NCBI GenBank assembly: GCA_044229475.1 | Contig: JBGASW010000007.1 | Coordinates: forward strand, 62,054-126,053 | Length of the DNA stretch: 64,000 bases | Direction: 5' to 3' | Source: Thermoanaerobaculia bacterium | GTDB taxonomy: Bacteria; Acidobacteriota; Thermoanaerobaculia; UBA5066 | Shown: one piece after another, positions 36,390 through 44,333 of the stretch | How positions within the stretch are numbered: position 1 is the first letter of the stretch | Layout: every line of letters begins with the position of its first letter | Translations under genes and position numbers: made by a program | Notes under the pieces: generated by a model | Told to the model about the DNA's origin: nothing | The model's input: only the letters and a program-made list of their open reading frames with translations | The model's database searches: none

Positions 36390-38027
36390 ATGACTCTGTC
36401 CCGGATTCCCTTCCACCGCCGGCTCGGCTTCAAGATCACGGCCACTGCGGCGGCGGCGATCCTCGTGCCCGTCGCGATCGTGGCGGCCGTCACGATCCGC
36501 GCCCAGCACGACGAGCTCGTGGCGCGCGCGCAGGGCAGCGCCGCGATCCTCTCGGAGACCGTCCGGAGCGCGACGCACGACTTCATGCTGAAGGACCAGC
36601 GCGAGGACGCGTACCGGATCGTCGAGATCGTCGGGCACGAGAGCCTCCGCGAGGGCAGCTCGATCGAGAGCGTCCGGATCTTCAACAAGCAGGGCGCCAC
36701 CGTGTACTCGACCGACCGCGCCGAGATCGGGCGGATCGCGGACAAGAGCGCCGGGGCCTGCGCGCCGTGCCACGGCGGGGCGGGCGCGCCGATCGCGAAC
36801 CCCGACCCCGCGACGCGCAGCCGGATCTCGGCGGTCGGCGACCGGCGCGTCCTCTCGTTCGTGACGCCGATCTACAACGAGGCCGCGTGCGCGGCGGCCG
36901 GCTGCCACGCGGCGCCGAAGGAGCAGCGCGTTCTCGGGCTCCTCGACGTCGCGCTCTCGCTGCGCGACGTGGACGACCGGCGCGCCGCCGCGACGTGGCG
37001 GATCGTCGGGCTGTCGCTTCTCGCGCTCGTCGCCCTGACGGCGCTCGTCTCGGCGATCGTCCGCGTCCTCGTGTTCCGTCCGGTCTCGGACATGCTCGCG
37101 GCGACGAAAGACCTCGCGCACGGCGGCACGCCGGCGCCCCTCCCGATCCGGTCGGACGACGAGCTCGGGATGCTCGGCCGCTCGTTCAACGAGATGAGCG
37201 ACTCGCTGCGCAAGGCCCGCGCGGAGCTCGAGCGTGCCGCGGACGGCCTCGAGCGCCAGGTGGAGGAGCGGACGGCCGCGCTCCAGCGGGCGCAGGAGGC
37301 GCTCGTGCAGTCCGAGAAGCTCGTCTCGCTCGGGACGCTCTCCGCGTCGATCGCCCACGAGATCAACAACCCGCTCGCGGGCATCCTGACGTTCGCGCGC
37401 CTCATGACGCGCACGCTCGAGTCGGGCGAGGTCGACGACGCGGCGCGCGCGGCCTGCCTGAAGAACCTCGGGCTGATTCAGCGCGAGACCGAGCGCTGCA
37501 CGCGAATCGTGCGGAGCCTCCTCGATTTCGCGCGGGCGCGCCCGATCGAGCTCCACGCGGTCGACGCCGTCGCCGCTCTCGACGAGGCCGTGTCGCTCAC
37601 GCAGCACAAGCTCCAGCTCGAGCAGGTCGCCGTGACGAAGGATCTCGACGGCGCGGCGGTCGTCCAGGGCGACTTCGGCCAGCTGCGGCAGGTCTTCGTG
37701 AACCTCATCCTGAACGCCTGCGACGCGATGCCGGGCGGCGGGACGCTCACCGTGACCGCGCGGAAGGTGGACGACGGGCGCACCGTGGAGATCGCCCTCT
37801 CGGACACGGGCGCGGGCATCGCGCCCGAGCACCTCTCGCGGATCTTCGACCCGTTCTTCACGACGAAGCAGATGGGCACGGGCCTCGGCCTCTCCGTCGC
37901 GTACGGCGTCGTCGAGAAGCACGGCGGCTCGATGAAGGCGGTCAGCCGCGTCGGCGCGGGGACGACGATGACGATCCGGCTCCCGCTCGCCGGGGAGACG
38001 GCGGCGCCGGCGGGCGCCGCCGCGTGA
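36390..38027 (+). CDS. Sensor histidine kinase with periplasmic c-type heme-binding sensor domain
   Basis: TM-periplasmic domain-TM-HAMP-HisKA (SIAHEINNPL)-HATPase_c (GTGLGLS); periplasmic domain has CAPCH (CxxCH) and CAAAGCH (Cx4CH) motifs. Confidence 0.8.
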   Translation: MTLSRIPFHRRLGFKITATAAAAILVPVAIVAAVTIRAQHDELVARAQGSAAILSETVRSATHDFMLKDQREDAYRIVEIVGHESLREGSSIESVRIFNKQGATVYSTDRAEIGRIADKSAGACAPCHGGAGAPIANPDPATRSRISAVGDRRVLSFVTPIYNEAACAAAGCHAAPKEQRVLGLLDVALSLRDVDDRRAAATWRIVGLSLLALVALTALVSAIVRVLVFRPVSDMLAATKDLAHGGTPAPLPIRSDDELGMLGRSFNEMSDSLRKARAELERAADGLERQVEERTAALQRAQEALVQSEKLVSLGTLSASIAHEINNPLAGILTFARLMTRTLESGEVDDAARAACLKNLGLIQRETERCTRIVRSLLDFARARPIELHAVDAVAALDEAVSLTQHKLQLEQVAVTKDLDGAAVVQGDFGQLRQVFVNLILNACDAMPGGGTLTVTARKVDDGRTVEIALSDTGAGIAPEHLSRIFDPFFTTKQMGTGLGLSVAYGVVEKHGGSMKAVSRVGAGTTMTIRLPLAGETAAPAGAAA

Positions 38028-38605
38028 GCGAGGTCCTCCTCCTGTGGATCGGAGTTCGGGACCCGGCCGCGGATCTCCTCGAAGGCGTTCGCCGGAGCGT
38101 GGCGCGCGAGTTCGAGATCGACGCCCGCGTGAGCGTCTCGGCCGAGCGCCCCGAGGACGCGTTCGACGCGCGCCGGGGTCAGCACTCGTCCACGCGGATC
38201 CTCGCGTGGCTGCAGGAGCGCCGGGAGGGGGCGCACCGGGTCCTCGGCGTGACGGACGCCGACCTCTTCATCCCGATCCTGACCTTCGTCTTCGGCGAGG
38301 CGCAGCTCGGCGGCCGCGCCGCGGTCGTCTCGACGGCCCGCCTCGGCGACACCCCGCTGATCCCCGGCGAGCCGGCGCGCATCGCCCTGCGCCTCCAGAA
38401 GGAGGCCGTGCACGAGCTCGGGCACACGTTCGGCCTCCTGCACTGCGCCGACGCGCGCTGCGCCATGGCGCGTTCGCCGAGCCTGAGACACGTCGACGAG
38501 AAATCCCCCGTCCTTTGCCGCGCCTGCCGCGCCCGCACCCGCGAACTCTCGGAGAACGGAGACGTCCATGAGCAAGAAGAACACGCGAATCCTGATCGTC
38601 GATGA
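38024..38605 (+). CDS. Archaemetzincin-like zinc metalloprotease (peptidase M54 family)
   Basis: HELGHTFGLLHC zinc motif plus CX4C...CX2C zinc-ribbon; GTG start overlapping HK stop (GTGA); 3' end overlaps RR start by ~38 nt. Confidence 0.65.
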   Translation: MSEVLLLWIGVRDPAADLLEGVRRSVAREFEIDARVSVSAERPEDAFDARRGQHSSTRILAWLQERREGAHRVLGVTDADLFIPILTFVFGEAQLGGRAAVVSTARLGDTPLIPGEPARIALRLQKEAVHELGHTFGLLHCADARCAMARSPSLRHVDEKSPVLCRACRARTRELSENGDVHEQEEHANPDRR

Positions 38606-39959
38606 CGAGGAGATCGTCCGGGAGTCCCTCTCGGGCTGGCTCGGCAAGGACGGCTACACGATCGGGACCGCGCCCGACGGGCTGACGGCCCTGAAGCTCA
38701 TGGAGGAGCACCCGTGGACGATCCTCCTCGTGGATCTCAAGATGCCCGGCATCGACGGGCTCGAGGTCCTGAGGCGCGTCAAGGAGCGCTGGAGCGACAC
38801 GGCCGTCCTCATCATGACGGCCTACGCCACCGTCGACACGGCCGTCAACGCGATGAAGGCCGGCGCGTTCGACTACGTCGTCAAGCCGTTCGACCCCGAG
38901 GAGGTGAGCCTCGTCGTCGAGAAGATCGTCGCGCAGCAGGCGCTCGTGCGCGAGAACGTGATCCTCCGGAAGGCCCTGAAGAAGGAGTACCGGTTCCACG
39001 ACCTCGTCACGAAGAGCCCGGCGCTTCTCGCGACGCTCGAGCTCGCGAAGACGGCCGCGCGCAGCCCGTCCACGGTCCTCGTCCTCGGGGAGAGCGGAAC
39101 CGGCAAGGAGCTCCTCGCCCGCGCGATCCACGCCGAGAGCCCGCGCAGCGGCAAGCCGTTCGTCGCGATGTCCTGCGCGGCCCTGACGGAGACGCTCCTC
39201 GAGTCCGAGCTCTTCGGGTACGAGAAGGGCGCGTTCACGGGCGCGAACGGCCGGCGGGAAGGGAAGTTCGAAGCGGCGAGCGGCGGCACGCTTTTCCTCG
39301 ACGAGATCGGCGACATCAGCCCGAAACTCCAGCTCGACCTCCTGCGCGTCCTCGAGGAGCGCCGGGTCACGCGGGTGGGCGGCACGGATTCGCTGCCCGT
39401 CGACGTCCGGATCATCGCCGCGACGAACCGGGACCTCCGGCGGGCGGTCGAGGAGGGCCGATTCCGGCAGGATCTCTTCTACCGCCTGAACGTCATCACG
39501 ATCACGCTCCTCCCGCTGCGCGAGAGGAAGGAGGACATTCCCCTGCTCGTCGACCGGCTTCTCGAACAGCTCTCGTCGGAGCTCAAGCGCCCCGCGGAGC
39601 GCGTCTCGCCCGAGGCGATGGCGATCCTCCTCGCCCACTCGTGGCCCGGGAACGTCCGCGAGCTGCGCAACGTCCTCGAGCGCGCGATCGTGGTCTCCGA
39701 GGGCCCCGTCCTCGAGGCCCGGCACCTCGGTCTCGTCCTCCAGGACGGCGCCGCGGCGCCCGTTCCCGAGCACCCGGCCTCGCTCGAGGAGATCGAGCGC
39801 CAGTACATCGGAAGCGTCCTCAAGCAGAGCGGCGGCAACGTGACGCAGGCCGCCCGCATCCTCGACATCGACCGCGTGACTCTCTACGCCAAAATTCGGA
39901 AGTACGGGCTGAAACGCGCGGAAGACGGGGAGTTCGAACCCGCAACGCCCGCCCGCTGA
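38568..39959 (+). CDS. Sigma-54-dependent Fis-family response regulator (NtrC-like)
   Basis: REC domain (ILIVDDE ... DLKMPG), AAA+ sigma-54 activator domain (GESGTGKE, GAFTGA, ESELFGYEKGAFTG), C-terminal Fis HTH. Confidence 0.9.
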   Translation: MSKKNTRILIVDDEEIVRESLSGWLGKDGYTIGTAPDGLTALKLMEEHPWTILLVDLKMPGIDGLEVLRRVKERWSDTAVLIMTAYATVDTAVNAMKAGAFDYVVKPFDPEEVSLVVEKIVAQQALVRENVILRKALKKEYRFHDLVTKSPALLATLELAKTAARSPSTVLVLGESGTGKELLARAIHAESPRSGKPFVAMSCAALTETLLESELFGYEKGAFTGANGRREGKFEAASGGTLFLDEIGDISPKLQLDLLRVLEERRVTRVGGTDSLPVDVRIIAATNRDLRRAVEEGRFRQDLFYRLNVITITLLPLRERKEDIPLLVDRLLEQLSSELKRPAERVSPEAMAILLAHSWPGNVRELRNVLERAIVVSEGPVLEARHLGLVLQDGAAAPVPEHPASLEEIERQYIGSVLKQSGGNVTQAARILDIDRVTLYAKIRKYGLKRAEDGEFEPATPAR

Positions 39960-39983: not shown

Positions 39984-40020
39984 ACGAACGCGCGGGCCTC
40001 CCGCGCGTTCTTTCGTTCTT
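39984..40020 (+). terminator. Rho-independent terminator after the sigma-54 regulator gene
   Basis: Perfect hairpin GAACGCGCGGG-CCTC-CCGCGCGTTC followed by TTTCGTTCTT. Confidence 0.6.
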
Positions 40021-40079: not shown

Positions 40080-40095
40080 TGGCCCGGTCCGTGCA
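40080..40095 (+). promoter_or_regulatory. Candidate sigma-54 (-24/-12) promoter TGGCCC-N5-GTGCA
   Basis: GG and GC dinucleotides at correct 12-nt spacing, ~15 nt upstream of first operon ORF; downstream of an NtrC-type activator gene. Confidence 0.35.
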
Positions 40096-40109
40096 ATCCC
40101 TCCGTCGCC

Positions 40110-40361
40110 ATGATGAACGACACCACGACCGCCTGCCCCTGGCTGAAGCAAGTCGTGATGCTCTATTGCGACGCCTGCCCGACGAAAAAGATGGTCCCGC
40201 GCGACCAGCTCGTGTCCATGGGTCCGTGCCTCGCCGGCTCCTTCTCGGAGTGCGCGATGTACCGCGAGATGGTCCAGAGGCTCGAGGCCGGCGCCGCCCG
40301 CAACGACGATGAAACGGAAGCGAGCCTCGCGGCCGCTTCCGGGAGGGAGGTCCCGTCATGA
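40110..40361 (+). CDS. Hypothetical Cys-rich small protein (83 aa)
   Basis: 5 Cys (C-x10-C-x2-C-x16-C-x7-C), coding codon bias, stop overlaps next start (ATGA). Confidence 0.4.
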   Translation: MMNDTTTACPWLKQVVMLYCDACPTKKMVPRDQLVSMGPCLAGSFSECAMYREMVQRLEAGAARNDDETEASLAAASGREVPS

Positions 40362-40441
40362 TCGCCACCGTTCCGCTCGCCGTTCTCGCCCTCCTGACGC
40401 TCCTCGCGATGGCCCGCCAGAGCCGGGTCCACGCCGCGTGA
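40358..40441 (+). CDS. Putative 27-aa hydrophobic membrane peptide (MIATVPLAVLALLTLLAMARQSRVHAA)
   Basis: Strong SD GGGAGGGAGG 7 nt upstream; single TM; followed by SD+start of Fe-S subunit gene. Confidence 0.3.
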   Translation: MIATVPLAVLALLTLLAMARQSRVHAA

Positions 40442-40457
40442 GAAGGAGAAAGACGCG

Positions 40458-41366
40458 ATGAACCTGAACCGCCGCAACCTTCTCAAGATCGCCGGCGCCG
40501 CCGGTGCGGGAGCCGCCCTCACCGGCGGTGCCCTCGCGTCGGCCACGACGCGAGGGGCCGCGAAGGACGCCGTCGGCGTTCTCGTCGACACGACGCGCTG
40601 CGTCGGCTGCCGCGGCTGCGAGGCCGCGTGCTCCGAAGCGAACGCGCTCGCCGCTCCCGACATGCCGGGCGACGACGCCGTGTTCGCCGCGCGCCGCCGG
40701 ACGGGACCCACGAGCTTCACGGTCGTGAACAAGTCGACCGCGAAGAGCCCCGCGGGCGAGGACCGCTACGCGAAGACGCAGTGCATGCACTGCGTGACGC
40801 CCGCCTGCGCGTCGGGCTGCGTCGTGAAGGCGCTCGAGAAGACGGCCTCGGGGCCGGTCGTGTACCACGAGGACCGCTGCCTCGGGTGCCGCTACTGCAT
40901 GATCGCGTGCCCCTTCAGCGTGCCGAAGTACGAGTACACGAAGGCGGCGCCCCTCGTGAAGAAGTGCACGTTCTGCGCGGCGCGCCAGGAGAAGGGCCTT
41001 CCGCCGGCCTGCACGGACGCGTGCCCCTCGGGCGCGCTCACGTTCGGCAAGCGGGCCGACCTCCTCGAAGAGGCCAAGACCCGCATCTACCAGAACCCGA
41101 CGAAGTACGTCCACGAGATCTACGGGGAGGACGAGGCCGGCGGCACGAGCTGGCTCTACATCTCCGACGTCTCCTCGGCGAGCCTCTCGCTCCCGCAGGA
41201 CATCGTGAAGAAGTCCTACCCCGAGATGGCCGACGGCGCGCTCTCGGCCGTCCCGTTCGTCGTGACCCTGTGGCCGCCGCTCCTCATGGGTCTCTACACC
41301 TTCAGCAAGCGGGTGGGCGACGTCGCCGGCCGCGAGAGCGCGCACAAGGGAGACGGCCATGAGTGA
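40458..41366 (+). CDS. Tat-exported 4x[4Fe-4S] ferredoxin-type subunit with C-terminal membrane anchor (HybA/PsrB/NrfC-like)
   Basis: Twin-arginine signal NRRNLLK; four Cys clusters (CVGCRGCEAAC, CMHCVTPACASGC, CLGCRYCMIACP, CTFC...CTDACP); C-terminal TM helix. Confidence 0.85.
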   Translation: MNLNRRNLLKIAGAAGAGAALTGGALASATTRGAAKDAVGVLVDTTRCVGCRGCEAACSEANALAAPDMPGDDAVFAARRRTGPTSFTVVNKSTAKSPAGEDRYAKTQCMHCVTPACASGCVVKALEKTASGPVVYHEDRCLGCRYCMIACPFSVPKYEYTKAAPLVKKCTFCAARQEKGLPPACTDACPSGALTFGKRADLLEEAKTRIYQNPTKYVHEIYGEDEAGGTSWLYISDVSSASLSLPQDIVKKSYPEMADGALSAVPFVVTLWPPLLMGLYTFSKRVGDVAGRESAHKGDGHE

Positions 41367-42582
41367 GACCTTCGACCGTGTGGCGGCTTCGGCCTTCCTC
41401 CGCGAAAAAGTCTTTCTCGGCATGGAGCCGAAGACGTACGCGAAGAGCCTCTTCACGAAGACGAACGCGATCTTCGCGGCGATCCTCGCCGTCGGCCTGC
41501 CCACGATGGCCTACAGGTTCTGGCACGGCATGGGCGCGGTGAGCAACCTCTCGCAGACGAACCCCTGGGGCATCTGGGTGGCGTTCGATATCGTGTGCGG
41601 CGTCGCGCTCGCCGCCGGCGGCTACACCGTGGCCGCGGCGGTCTACCTGTTCGGACAGAAGCAGTTCGCCCCGGTCCTCCGCCCCGCGATCCTCACGGGC
41701 TTCCTCGGCTACGCCTTCGTCCTCGTCGGCCTGCTCGTCGATCTCGGGCAGCCGTGGCGGCTCCCGTACCAGTTCTTCCTCACGCCCGGCACGACCGCCG
41801 TCATGTACGAGGTCGGCTGGTGCGTCTTCCTGTACCTGATGGTCCTCGCGCTCGAGTTCCTTCCGGCGGCGCTCGAGTGGCTCGGGATGACGAAAGTTCG
41901 CCGATTCATGAGCGCGATCTCGATCGGGATCATCGTCCTCGGCGTCACGCTCTCGACGCTCCACCAGTCCTCGCTCGGCGCCTTCTTCCTCATGTCGCCC
42001 GGCAAGCTCCACCCCCTGTGGTACTCGCCGTTCCTCCCGATCTTCTTCTTCGTGTCCTCGATCGCAGCGGGCATCGGGATGGTGATCTTCGAGAGCTCGG
42101 TCTCGCACCGGGCCTTCCAGGACCGGCTCGACCCCGAGGCGCACGTCGACATGGACGCGCTGCAGCTCGGGCTCGCCAAGGGCGGCGCGGTCGTCCTCTT
42201 CGCGTACTTCTTCATCCGCCTGCAGGGCCTCGTCGCGTCCGGCCGGTTCGACCTCCTCCTGACCGGGTGGGGCGCCTGGTTCGCGCTCGAGATGGTCGGC
42301 TTCGTCCTCCTGCCGTCGCTCCTCTTCGCCTTCGCCGTGAGGACCCAGAATGCGAAGCTCGCGCGCGCCGCCGGCGTCATGACGGTGCTCGGCGTCGTCC
42401 TCAACCGCTTCAACGTGTCTCTGATCGCGTTCAACTGGAACGTGCCGGACCGGTACGTTCCCGCGCTCGGAGAGATCGTCATCTCGATCACGATCGTCAC
42501 GCTCGGCGTCCTCGTGTTCCGCTGGATCGTCAACCGCATGCCCGTGCTCCGCGAGCATCCGGACTGGCGCGGCGCCCACTGA
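41359..42582 (+). CDS. NrfD/PsrC/HybB-family polytopic quinone-interacting membrane subunit
   Basis: 407 aa, ~10 TM helices, NrfD-family pattern; 8-nt overlap with Fe-S subunit gene. Confidence 0.85.
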   Translation: MSETFDRVAASAFLREKVFLGMEPKTYAKSLFTKTNAIFAAILAVGLPTMAYRFWHGMGAVSNLSQTNPWGIWVAFDIVCGVALAAGGYTVAAAVYLFGQKQFAPVLRPAILTGFLGYAFVLVGLLVDLGQPWRLPYQFFLTPGTTAVMYEVGWCVFLYLMVLALEFLPAALEWLGMTKVRRFMSAISIGIIVLGVTLSTLHQSSLGAFFLMSPGKLHPLWYSPFLPIFFFVSSIAAGIGMVIFESSVSHRAFQDRLDPEAHVDMDALQLGLAKGGAVVLFAYFFIRLQGLVASGRFDLLLTGWGAWFALEMVGFVLLPSLLFAFAVRTQNAKLARAAGVMTVLGVVLNRFNVSLIAFNWNVPDRYVPALGEIVISITIVTLGVLVFRWIVNRMPVLREHPDWRGAH

Positions 42583-42599: not shown

Positions 42600-43265
42600 A
42601 TGAACGAAAGCAGCCTCCTCAGCCCGCACGCCACGAAGGCCCTCGAGTACCTGCTCGCGGTCTCGTACCTCCTGCTCTTCATCCCCTTCTGGCGCTTCGT
42701 GAACGGCGCGACGATCGCGCAATCCTTCGCGCTCGGATGGTTTCAGGTCCCCGAGAACGTCCACCTGCACCGCGGGCACTCGTGGGCCAAGACGTTCGGC
42801 GGCGCCGTCGCGGTCGGCCTGGACGACTTCGCCCACAAGCTGATCGGCCCGCTGGACGAGGTGCGGTTCCCCGCGGTCGGCACGCCGCTCCGGCAGGGCC
42901 AGAAGGCCTTCACGGTCGTCGCGGACGGCAAGCCCTTCGACGTCGTCTCGCCCGTGGACGGCAACGTCGTCGCGGTCAACGAGGTCGTGCACGCGCACCC
43001 GGCCGACGCCGTCCGCGATCCGTACGGAACGGGCTGGCTCCTGAAGGTCGAGCCGCGCTGGCTGACCGCGAACCTCAAGAACCTCGTCTCCGGCGACTCC
43101 GCCCGCCGCTTCCTGGATGCGGCCGCCCAGGCGCTCTCGGGCCGCATGAGCCCGGAGCTCGGCGTCGTCCTCCAGGACGGCGGCGCCCCGGTCCACGGCA
43201 TCGCCCGCGAAATCGACCCCGAGCACTGGGACGAGGTCGTGCGCCACCACCTGAAGGGCGAGTGA
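42600..43265 (+). CDS. Membrane-anchored glycine-cleavage-H (GcvH)-fold protein, lipoyl-Lys position conserved
   Basis: N-terminal TM helix then region colinear with GcvH (HRGHSWAK ... AVGLDDFAHKLIGPLDEV ... VVADGKPFDVVSPVDGNVVAVNE ... DPYGTGWLLKV). Confidence 0.65.
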   Translation: MNESSLLSPHATKALEYLLAVSYLLLFIPFWRFVNGATIAQSFALGWFQVPENVHLHRGHSWAKTFGGAVAVGLDDFAHKLIGPLDEVRFPAVGTPLRQGQKAFTVVADGKPFDVVSPVDGNVVAVNEVVHAHPADAVRDPYGTGWLLKVEPRWLTANLKNLVSGDSARRFLDAAAQALSGRMSPELGVVLQDGGAPVHGIAREIDPEHWDEVVRHHLKGE

Positions 43266-43275
43266 GGAGGACGCG

Positions 43276-43626
43276 ATGAAAGCCCGCATCCATTTCCTCG
43301 CGGCGACCCTCCTTCTCGCCCTTCTCTCGGCGACCCTCCTCGCGGGCGCGCTGCCGAACCTCCCGAAGGAGAAGGCGCTCCCGCAGGGCGACGGCAGCCC
43401 CGGCGTCGTCACCTTCCGCCACGACTCCCACGTCGACGCCTCGCGCCCCGACTGCACGACGTGTCACCCGACGCTCTTCCCCATCGTCAAACGCACCGCC
43501 TCTTCGGCCGCCCCCGCCGCGATCCGCCACGCCGACATGGAAAAAGGCAAGAGCTGCGGCTCCTGCCACGACGGCAAGAGCGCCCACGGCCTCGACGACT
43601 GCGGGACGTGCCACAAGGCCAAGTGA
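43276..43626 (+). CDS. Triheme c-type cytochrome, cytochrome c7/c3-like
   Basis: Signal peptide; three CxxCH (CTTCH, CGSCH, CGTCH); VTFRHDSH motif as in Geobacter PpcA. Confidence 0.8.
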   Translation: MKARIHFLAATLLLALLSATLLAGALPNLPKEKALPQGDGSPGVVTFRHDSHVDASRPDCTTCHPTLFPIVKRTASSAAPAAIRHADMEKGKSCGSCHDGKSAHGLDDCGTCHKAK

Positions 43627-43634
43627 GGTGACCC

Positions 43635-44333
43635 ATGACGCCTCTTGAGTTCCTCCAGCTCGCCGGCATCTTCCTCGCGGGTCTCGTCGTCCGCGCCCTC
43701 GCCTTCACGCTCGTCCTCGCGGTCTGCGCGCTCCCGATCCTCGCGGCCTGGGCGCTCTGGCGCGCCTGGCAGAAGCTGCGGGACCGCAGCATCGGCCTCG
43801 TGGACGTGGGCGGGCTCGAGCTCGCCGAGGCGCACCACTACGCCCCCGGCCACACGTGGCTCCAGCGGCGGGCGCGCGGCTCGGTCCGCGTCGGGCTCGA
43901 CGAGATCGCGGGCCGGCTCCTGCACGGGCCCACGAGCGTCACGCTCCCGAGGCCGGGCACCGTCCTGGCCGCCGGCCTCCCCGCCGCCACCGTGAGCTGC
44001 CACGGGCGCGCCGCCGCGATTCCGGCGCCCATCTCGGGCACGGTCGTCGCGACCAACCCGGCCGTCGTCCGCGACCCCTCGCTCCTCGAGGAGTCGCGCT
44101 ACCGGGACGGCTGGCTCTTCGCGATGAAGCCCGCGACGGCCGCGTTCCTGACGCTCCCGACCGGCGAGACCGCGCGCTCCTGGTTCAAGGACGAGACGGC
44201 GCGCTTCTCGCGCGCGCTCGAGACCGAGCTCGGCCTCCTCGCCGCGGACGGCGGCGAGCTCGTGGTCGAGGCGCCCGCGCTTCTCTCGGAGGAGAAGTGG
44301 CAGCGCCTCGTCTCGGAGTTCCTGAAGGGCTGA
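43635..44333 (+). CDS. Membrane-anchored GcvH-fold protein lacking the lipoyl lysine (Cys-His at equivalent site)
   Basis: Two N-terminal TM helices then GcvH-like region (YAPGHTWLQ ... VGLDEIAGRLLHGP ... SGTVVATNPAVVRDPSLL ... DGWLFAMKP); K replaced (VSCHGRAA). Confidence 0.6.
   Translation: MTPLEFLQLAGIFLAGLVVRALAFTLVLAVCALPILAAWALWRAWQKLRDRSIGLVDVGGLELAEAHHYAPGHTWLQRRARGSVRVGLDEIAGRLLHGPTSVTLPRPGTVLAAGLPAATVSCHGRAAAIPAPISGTVVATNPAVVRDPSLLEESRYRDGWLFAMKPATAAFLTLPTGETARSWFKDETARFSRALETELGLLAADGGELVVEAPALLSEEKWQRLVSEFLKG

Follow-up and report, generated by a model that had tools for sequence, protein, structure and literature searches.

Two small open reading frames (ORFs) were analysed in a 64,000-nt stretch of DNA from a Thermoanaerobaculia bacterium (Acidobacteriota; assembly GCA_044229475.1, contig JBGASW010000007.1, positions 62,054 to 126,053 of the forward strand), which we refer to as the window. 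The first encodes an 83-residue cysteine-rich protein (Cys83) and the second, which overlaps its stop codon, a 27-residue hydrophobic peptide (pep27). Comparative evidence indicates that both are genuine genes and the first two cistrons of a sigma-54-type operon with the gene order Cys83, pep27, HmcB-like, HmcC-like, GcvH-like 1, cytochrome c7 and GcvH-like 2. We consider it probable (about 60%) that Cys83 is a cytoplasmic, probably metal-binding partner of the GcvH-like proteins, and that pep27 serves the same membrane complex as a micro-subunit with one membrane span. The original prediction for these ORFs, made from the letters of the window without database searches, associated both with a respiratory complex, and this was supported, since the operon in which both lie encodes a membrane complex of respiratory type. 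The iron-sulfur (Fe-S) subunit gene to which it pointed belongs to that operon but proved not to encode the informative partner; that part is taken by the GcvH-like proteins, which are fused to Cys83 relatives elsewhere.

The Cys83 family and its fusions to GcvH-like domains

Cys83 translates as MMNDTTTACPWLKQVVMLYCDACPTKKMVPRDQLVSMGPCLAGSFSECAMYREMVQRLEAGAARNDDETEASLAAASGREVPS and has cysteines at positions 9, 20, 23, 40 and 48 (C-x10-C-x2-C-x16-C-x7-C). The G+C content at codon positions 1/2/3 of its ORF is 0.58/0.51/0.88, with similar values in the neighbouring genes, and the window as a whole is 72% G+C. The five-cysteine spacing and codon bias had been noted in the original prediction, along with the ATGA overlap and strong Shine–Dalgarno (SD) sequence described below, and all of these statements held on checking. 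However, the 83-residue gene is not one that routine annotation would miss, as had been claimed, because it is already annotated: Cys83 is identical to NCBI HQQ78726.1 (hypothetical protein PLB01_15335 from a Thermoanaerobaculia bacterium).

We identified 58 homologues of Cys83 (58–100% identity, E-values from 2e-19 to 3e-49). An exhaustive profile search extended the family to 167 clusters at 50% identity, and a second profile search returned 415 clusters at 90% identity; among the best 120 of these 415 matches, all relatives carrying names were called "hypothetical". With 58 homologues of Cys83, and with the micro-ORF that follows it kept in 42 of 44 loci (see below), conservation of the two reading frames is beyond chance. 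In an alignment of 70 diverse family members (A2), C9, P10, C20, K27, C40 and C48 were invariant, which gives the family signature C-P-x9-C-x6-K-x12-C-x7-C over a domain of ∼50 residues. The window protein has all six invariant residues plus a lineage-specific C23, which is present in 22/129 motif-bearing representatives, so the family-wide signature consists of four cysteines rather than five.

Scans with Pfam and NCBIfam gave no family match for Cys83, nor any recurrent match among the 70 family members even at E ≤ 1, and comparison of the Cys83 profile with PDB sequences produced a single chance match (E = 1.5). As a ferredoxin-type 4Fe-4S protein Cys83 scored negative, with no CxxCxxCxxxCP motif and no Fer4 match, the C-P dipeptide alone being reminiscent of such proteins. 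It also failed the test for a zinc ribbon or treble clef, which looks for two CxxC or CxxH knuckles and a recognisable fold. In the literature library searched, no description of the Cys domain or of a GcvH-like/HmcBC combination was found. By these comparisons, Cys83 belongs to an undescribed Cys4 domain family, whose four invariant cysteines would coordinate a metal, as Zn or in an Fe-S cluster. In the AlphaFold model of Cys83 (mean predicted local distance difference test score (pLDDT) 68.6, core 74–86), a β-hairpin (residues 15–19/26–30) and a helix (49–68) are predicted, and residues 67–83 are predicted to be disordered (pLDDT < 50).

The strongest indication of a partner comes from gene fusions. 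Of the best 150 family representatives, ∼91 are stand-alone proteins (≤130 residues) and ∼47 are longer than 220 residues. In the long members, a GcvH-like domain is preceded by a single or duplicated Cys domain and followed by a helical extension bearing a DGG motif; P0096, P0098, P0108, P0125 and P0133 are soluble examples. GCV_H was found in 30/40 of the long members scanned and the DGG tail in 36/47 long representatives. GcvH-like 1 and GcvH-like 2 of the window share this GcvH-like/DGG architecture and start with transmembrane segments. Neither a signal peptide nor a transmembrane segment was found in the Cys–GcvH fusions or in Cys83 itself, and we infer from this that Cys83 is cytoplasmic. 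In the model of P0133 (pLDDT 88.6, predicted template modelling score 0.77), the central domain alone resembles solved structures, matching H-proteins at template modelling scores of ∼0.9 (0.92 for 1onl). Other architectures include REC-Cys-GcvH (P0124) and a Cys domain, a second Cys-rich module and GcvH (P0114 and P0159). This different Cys-rich module lies between the Cys and GcvH-like domains in P0114, P0159 and P0122 and occurs twice; it reads C-x-W-M-K-A-G-V-I-A-x-R-x-C-T-x3-D-C-x2-C-x-F-D-Q and has no Pfam match.

The pep27 micro-ORF and its coupling to Cys83

The Cys83 stop codon (TGA, 40359–40361) overlaps the pep27 start codon (ATG, 40358–40360) as ATGA, and the GGAGG of the pep27 SD sequence ends 7 nt 5′ of this ATG. 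Residues 1–20 of pep27 form one hydrophobic helix (mean Kyte–Doolittle value 2.46), and the tail after them is basic. Downstream of the pep27 stop (40439–40441) lies AAGGAG (40443–40448) and then the ATG of the Fe-S subunit gene (40458).

We surveyed the region 3′ of the Cys gene in 44 species-level loci from Thermoanaerobaculia, Holophagales, Vicinamibacteria and other Acidobacteriota metagenome-assembled genomes (MAGs). A transmembrane micro-ORF directly followed the Cys gene in 42 of the 44, and 40 of these 42 combined the ATGA overlap with an N-terminus of the form MI(A/L/M)..PL(A/S/V) and a length of 26–40 residues. Loci L028 and L029 have a TAATG junction and a micro-ORF with a differing transmembrane sequence, and no micro-ORF follows the Cys gene in L031 and L045. 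In locus L036 (7258–7977) the micro-ORF has lost its stop codon and runs on into hmcB, with an apparent frame shift further downstream; since the identical peptide ends at a stop in the neighbouring species L034, an assembly error is likely. In two groups of equal-length micro-ORFs, dN/dS was 0.46 and 0.25, with 11/7/16 and 8/5/18 variable columns at codon positions 1/2/3. The translational coupling put forward in the original prediction, through the ATGA overlap and a strong SD sequence, is supported. Of the checks proposed there for the two small ORFs, conservation at the same position and Ka/Ks came out in favour of the 27-residue ORF.

The coupling is also visible in the Cys83 protein. In close homologues the C-terminal tail S-G-R-E-V-P-S is nearly invariant and the preceding ∼20 residues are variable. 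We attribute this to the overlap, because the same codons spell the SD sequence and the pep27 start. In loci with other tails (KEV, REA or RRES), AGGAGG or GGGAG is kept with unchanged spacing to the following ATG, and this retention of the SD despite differing tail residues is independent evidence that the pep27 start is used. With its start, SD sequence, reading frame and transmembrane helix all kept, and with purifying selection on its codons, pep27 is, as far as sequence comparison can establish, a membrane micro-protein.

In agreement with the expectation that routine annotation misses such a peptide, the exact 27-residue sequence was absent among 15 billion predicted proteins, and its flanking genes occur on >100 contigs. 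The same collection contains 28- and 30-residue versions from relatives, and pep27 most likely escapes annotation through the 30-codon floor that gene callers usually apply. Pfam and NCBIfam scans gave no match for pep27. The possibility that it is HmcD was rejected, as the HmcD model NF045712 (cut-off 34 bits) showed no match to pep27 even at E ≤ 10. We searched the distant loci L047, L049, L051, L052, L053 and L055 for uncalled pep27-like ORFs and found none; among the distant loci examined, a pep27-like ORF is present only in L054.

The sigma-54 promoter, operon order and regulatory cassette

A putative sigma-54 promoter ends 15 nt 5′ of the Cys83 ATG. It combines TGGC at −24 with TGC at −12, spaced as GG-N10-GC, and adjoins a gene for an enhancer-binding protein. 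The pattern TGGCNCN6TGCW has a single match in the window, with 0.39 expected by chance, and TGGC-N8-TGC was found at the equivalent place in 44/47 sequences, as well as in L051, L052, L054 and L055. If the GC at 40093–40094 is taken as −13/−12, transcription would start near 40106 by established sigma-54 geometry. This predicts a leader of ∼4 nt without an SD sequence, and hence near-leaderless translation of Cys83. The 30-nt spacing from promoter to Cys83 is kept in most Thermoanaerobaculia loci, and leaders are longer in L051, L052, L054 and L055.

The operon order is maintained over the 44 loci and is shared by MAGs of Thermoanaerobaculia, Holophagales and Vicinamibacteria, with cytochrome c7 an optional member. 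Loci L031 and L035 have no HmcBC and retain the Cys gene and both GcvH-like genes. The Cys gene of L031 is ATGA-coupled directly to the GcvH2-like gene, and the order in L035 is Cys-pep-GcvH1-GcvH2.

Upstream of the operon lies a cassette of a sensor histidine kinase, an archaemetzincin-like Peptidase_M54 protein and a sigma-54-dependent response regulator (Table 1). In most of the 44 loci, the gene immediately before the Cys gene encodes a copy of the regulator with 66–98% identity. The M54 gene sits between the kinase and regulator genes and overlaps the start of the latter by 38 nt; an ORF at 38044–38571 (+) was rejected as an Arg/Pro-rich wrong frame of this gene, which in fact spans 38024–38605. 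Peptidase_M54 genes were called at the equivalent position in L002, L051, L052 and L054, and the whole kinase-M54-regulator cassette recurs across phyla, in L002, L051, L052, L054 and L055. A literature search returned no reported role for the protease in a kinase/M54/sigma-54 cassette, and we know of no such role reported in a two-component cassette of this kind. The strong hairpin with its T tract (39986–40020) separates the regulator transcript from the sigma-54 operon, and its reverse complement also scores as a minus-strand terminator.

Table 1. Features of the Cys83–pep27 operon and its upstream regulatory cassette in the window
Feature	Position	Strand	Evidence and remarks
Sensor histidine kinase (HAMP-HisKA-HATPase)	36390-38027	+	Pfam; precedes the Cys gene at most related loci
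Archaemetzincin-like Peptidase_M54, HELGHTFGLLH motif, Cys-rich C-terminus	38024-38605	+	Translation/motif; same-position relatives
Sigma-54-dependent response regulator (REC, Sigma54_activat, HTH_8)	38568-39959	+	Pfam, E = 1e-70
Intrinsic-terminator-like hairpin	39986-40010, T tract to 40020	+	11-bp stem, 9 GC pairs
Putative sigma-54 (−24/−12) promoter TGGCCCGGTCCGTGCA	40080-40095	+	Pattern match, conservation
Cys83, 83-residue four/five-Cys protein, first gene of the operon	40110-40361	+	Translation, homologues, profile alignment
Shine–Dalgarno sequence GGGAGGGAGG for pep27	40341-40350	+	Inside Cys83 C-terminal codons S-G-R-E-V
pep27, single-transmembrane micro-protein, 27 residues, MIATVPLAVLALLTLLAMARQSRVHAA	40358-40441	+	Translation, conservation, hydropathy
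Tat-exported HmcB/HybA-like 4Fe-4S subunit	40458-41366	+	Fer4_11, TAT_signal; NF045715, 353 bits
HmcC/HybB-like NrfD-family integral membrane subunit	41359-42582	+	PF03916; NF045714, 519 bits
GcvH-like 1: N-terminal transmembrane helix, H-protein fold, C-terminal helical extension with DGG	42600-43265	+	Alignments, hydropathy
Periplasmic triheme cytochrome c7-type protein	43276-43626	+	PF14522, TIGR04257; absent in some related operons
GcvH-like 2: N-terminal hydrophobic hairpin, H-protein fold, ADGGE tail	43635-44333	+	GCV_H, alignments, hydropathy

Membrane-complex subunits and GcvH-like proteins

The subunits encoded directly downstream of pep27 score below the NCBIfam equivalog cut-offs (353 vs 420 bits for the HmcB model NF045715; 519 vs 550 bits for the HmcC model NF045714). 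Although these are their best NCBIfam matches, we therefore describe them as HmcB-like and HmcC-like rather than as equivalogs. The HmcB-like subunit carries a signal for twin-arginine translocation (Tat) and probably has a C-terminal anchor, AVPFVVTLWPPLLMGLYTF, which was read by eye; a hydropathy scan flagged no transmembrane segment in this protein.

For the GcvH-like proteins, we compared the lipoylation site with Thermus and E. coli H-proteins in gap-free HMMER alignments, using the E. coli ...ESVKAAS... hairpin as the reference for the lipoylatable lysine. Glycine replaces this lysine in both GcvH-like 1 and GcvH-like 2, and both proteins score below the TIGR00527 cut-off. GenBank names the pair "glycine cleavage system protein H" (HQQ79027.1 and HQQ79029.1), which is probably wrong because the lipoyl lysine is lost in both. 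The GcvH-like/DGG proteins are probably a mis-annotated, uncharacterised family. The gene for GcvH-like 1 directly follows hmcC, a position that would suit an HmcD-like helix, and its N-terminal helix has a weak match to the HmcD model NF045712 (15.7 bits, E = 0.011, cut-off 34). A GcvH-like homologue in L047 also matches HmcD weakly (19.1 bits, E = 9e-4), and a precomputed weak match to PF28260 (DVU_0533) is recorded in that locus. The 180-residue ORF at 42737–43279 (+) in the ORF list was discarded as a wrong frame, the real gene being 42600–43265. Loci L049 (8890–9108) and L055 (3327–3506) encode 72- and 59-residue transmembrane proteins that end in (A/T)DGG(E/K), as the GcvH-like proteins do, which suggests that the DGG tail may be a separable module.

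Contexts outside Acidobacteriota and a possible regulatory role

The Cys/GcvH-like gene set was seen in Acidobacteriota from soil and sediment and in one Anaeromyxobacter MAG; the other related contigs are metagenomic. Over seven contexts, the Cys domain was accompanied by a sigma-54 regulator in six, by GcvH-like domains in six and by HmcBC in four. In the Anaeromyxobacter MAG (L051), a kinase, M54 protein and regulator are followed by Cys83 ATGA-coupled to HmcB, then HmcC, GcvH and c7, without a micro-ORF. L047 has a Cys–GcvH fusion, GcvH, HmcB, HmcC and a GcvH with a transmembrane segment, and L055 has a kinase, a regulator, the 59-residue transmembrane protein with TDGG, HmcB, HmcC, M54 and a REC-Cys-GcvH protein. 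In L052, an M54 gene and a regulator are accompanied by Cys-(Cys-rich module)-GcvH alone. L054 has M54, a regulator and a 75-residue Cys protein, and on the opposite strand a 29-residue transmembrane peptide, MILAFAVAAVTVTTFGFLNLLSWASGRHA, GcvH, HmcB, HmcC and GcvH; sigma-54 promoters were found at both the separate Cys gene and the peptide-led operon. Finally, L053 has a regulator, an 85-residue Cys protein, a hybrid kinase, a REC protein and HdrC/B-like genes.

These contexts bear on a different role for Cys83, as a regulatory Cys4 protein of the sigma-54 cassette that senses redox state or metals and feeds back on the regulator or kinase. We regard this as unlikely, yet it is the alternative that survives best. 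In nearly every locus the Cys gene or Cys–GcvH fusion lies directly downstream of the sigma-54 response regulator, and this adjacency persists where HmcBC is located elsewhere or absent (L052, L053 and L054). In L053 the Cys gene is placed between the regulator and the hybrid kinase, and the REC-Cys-GcvH architecture of P0124 joins the domain to a receiver. The recurrence of the Peptidase_M54 gene in the cassette fits a variant of the same idea, in which the conserved metalloprotease might act on Cys83 or associate with it. However, adjacency to the regulator is also expected if Cys83 is merely the first gene of the regulated operon, and the sigma-54 promoter does precede Cys83. The tight ATGA coupling to pep27/HmcB (in L051 to HmcB itself) suggests that Cys83 is made in stoichiometric amounts with structural subunits, and Cys83 has no similarity to known anti-activators. 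The coupling and the promoter suit the subunit view at least as well as the regulatory one.

For pep27, the alternative is that the peptide itself has no function and that the micro-ORF, as a translational relay, hands ribosomes on from Cys83 to hmcB or else opens up mRNA structure. The stop/start overlap, the strong SD sequence and the distance of just 16 nt from the pep27 stop to the hmcB ATG would all suit a relay, no such peptide is encoded in L045 or L051, in which hmcB is coupled directly to the Cys gene, and Ala/Leu-rich ORFs arise easily at 72% G+C. We nevertheless judge a relay improbable, given that the amino-acid sequence is conserved (MIATVPLA...) at a dN/dS of 0.25–0.46 with third-position changes dominating, that the design of a transmembrane helix with a basic tail persists in the diverged loci L028, L029 and L043, that the L054 peptide heads an operon without an upstream Cys gene, and that hmcB has its own SD sequence.

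That Cys83 is a NapD-like chaperone, serving Tat proofreading or assembly of the exported Fe-S subunit, would correspond to the "chaperone-like" label of the original prediction but is very improbable: Cys83 is small and cytoplasmic and its gene is immediately upstream of one for a Tat-signal 4Fe-4S protein, but it matches neither NapD, TorD/DmsD, HybE nor any other family, its gene is present without a nearby HmcB in L031, L035, L052 and L053, and its recurrent fusions are to GcvH-like rather than Tat-related domains.

A proposed arrangement of the Cys83–pep27 complex

We favour a role for both small proteins in the membrane complex and propose the following arrangement. The sigma-54 regulator would activate the promoter at 40080–40095, and Cys83 would be translated from an almost leaderless mRNA starting near 40106. 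Ribosomes ending Cys83 translation would then re-initiate at the overlapped pep27 start, aided by its strong SD sequence. Cys83 is predicted to be a cytoplasmic mini-domain of ∼50 residues with a disordered tail, in which the four cysteines would hold an Fe-S cluster or Zn. It would dock onto the cytoplasmic GcvH-like domains, which HmcD-like transmembrane helices would tether to the NrfD-type subunit, and in other lineages the Cys and GcvH-like domains are made as one polypeptide. As a micro-subunit of this complex, pep27 would span the membrane once, with the N-terminus outside and the basic tail on the cytoplasmic side. The most likely task of the complex is to connect the menaquinone pool, at HmcC, with the haem and Fe-S carriers of the periplasm (c7 and HmcB). 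The GcvH-like/Cys83 part would be an accessory or regulatory module on the cytoplasmic side, outside the electron wire; this module is unlikely to lie in the electron path because the operon has no CCG subunit and no haem-b subunit that could take electrons across the membrane.

Several observations weigh against this arrangement. The Cys gene of L053 is flanked by genes for a sigma-54 regulator and a hybrid kinase and has HdrBC-like genes close by, but the nearest 7 kb contain no GcvH-like gene, and the P0124 fusion carries a receiver domain; a regulatory role fits these two cases at least as well. The cysteines are not spaced as in any standard Fe-S or zinc-knuckle motif, the confidence of the Cys83 model is middling (pLDDT 68.6), and metal binding is proposed from the four invariant cysteines only. 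Docking of Cys83 on GcvH-like domains is likewise proposed from gene fusion and gene neighbourhood. As for pep27, the dN/dS values derive from short, related sequences and the peptide has no detectable similarity to HmcD. L045, L051 (Anaeromyxobacter) and further distant loci do without it, so it is dispensable for the core system.

Comparison with known systems

HmcBC/NrfD-type modules are the core shared by many respiratory complexes of anaerobes, among them Hmc, Nhc, Qrc, Dsr, Psr and alternative complex III. The window operon most resembles the Hmc and Nhc systems of Desulfovibrio in having a Tat-exported HybA/HmcB-type Fe-S subunit, an NrfD-type HmcC and a periplasmic multihaem cytochrome. 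In both, small hydrophobic helices are encoded beside hmcC, that of GcvH-like 1 having a weak, sub-threshold resemblance to HmcD. Unlike Hmc and Nhc, the operon has no HmcA, HmcE (haem b) or HmcF (CCG), and instead has two GcvH-like proteins, Cys83 and pep27; to our knowledge, none of these is among the Hmc complex subunits. We regard the predicted complex as a variant of a membrane redox complex that carries an undescribed Cys4 domain family.

The GcvH-like pair itself shares the H-protein fold and the GCV_H match with the glycine-cleavage H protein and LbpA. It differs from them in having glycine in place of the lipoyl lysine, a membrane anchor (or, elsewhere, a Cys fusion) and the helical DGG extension.

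Single-helix micro-subunits such as CydX and CcoQ are components of respiratory complexes. Like CydX, CcoQ and HmcD, pep27 has ∼30 residues, one transmembrane helix and a basic cytoplasmic tail, is encoded within the operon and falls below the 30-codon floor. It differs in having no sequence similarity to them, and its membership of a complex is a proposal. Similarly, Cys83 resembles NapD-type chaperones in its size and its position upstream of a Tat substrate, and differs from them in sequence, in its four invariant cysteines, in its GcvH-like fusions and in occurring without a nearby Tat substrate.

The regulation of the operon has a parallel in Geobacter sulfurreducens, where the cbcBA operon for an inner-membrane quinone-linked cytochrome complex depends on the sigma-54 regulator BccR and opens with GSU0597 and GSU3489 (bioRxiv 10.1101/2021.04.15.440034). 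Both operons have sigma-54 control and two small hypothetical ORFs in first position, which is an analogy only. The membrane subunit of the Geobacter system is a dihaem cytochrome b, unlike the NrfD/HmcBC type found here.

Significance

The operon represents a recurrent and previously undescribed gene set, in which a four-cysteine mini-domain and H-protein-like subunits that cannot be lipoylated are placed under a conserved sigma-54 cassette, and to which the acidobacterial version adds a membrane peptide of 27–40 residues. For annotation, the naming of the GcvH-like pair as "glycine cleavage system protein H" can be corrected and pep27 added as an unannotated gene. The roles of Cys83 and pep27 are proposed from comparative evidence only, and the practical impact is moderate. 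Nevertheless, the domain signature together with the gene-fusion evidence makes the Cys83/GcvH-like partnership testable, and the partners of NrfD-type modules at the cytoplasmic face largely decide what such a complex does.

A broader and more tentative proposal, which we hold as possible, is that the Cys4 domain and the non-lipoylated GcvH-like/DGG proteins form an unrecognised cytoplasmic module, redox-sensing or energy-coupling, that is used on NrfD-type quinone modules or with receiver domains and Hdr-like genes. If this were true, the module would be controlled by a dedicated kinase/M54-protease/sigma-54 cassette, and it would define a new class of respiratory or signalling complex over several phyla of anaerobes, with pep27 as its acidobacterial micro-subunit.

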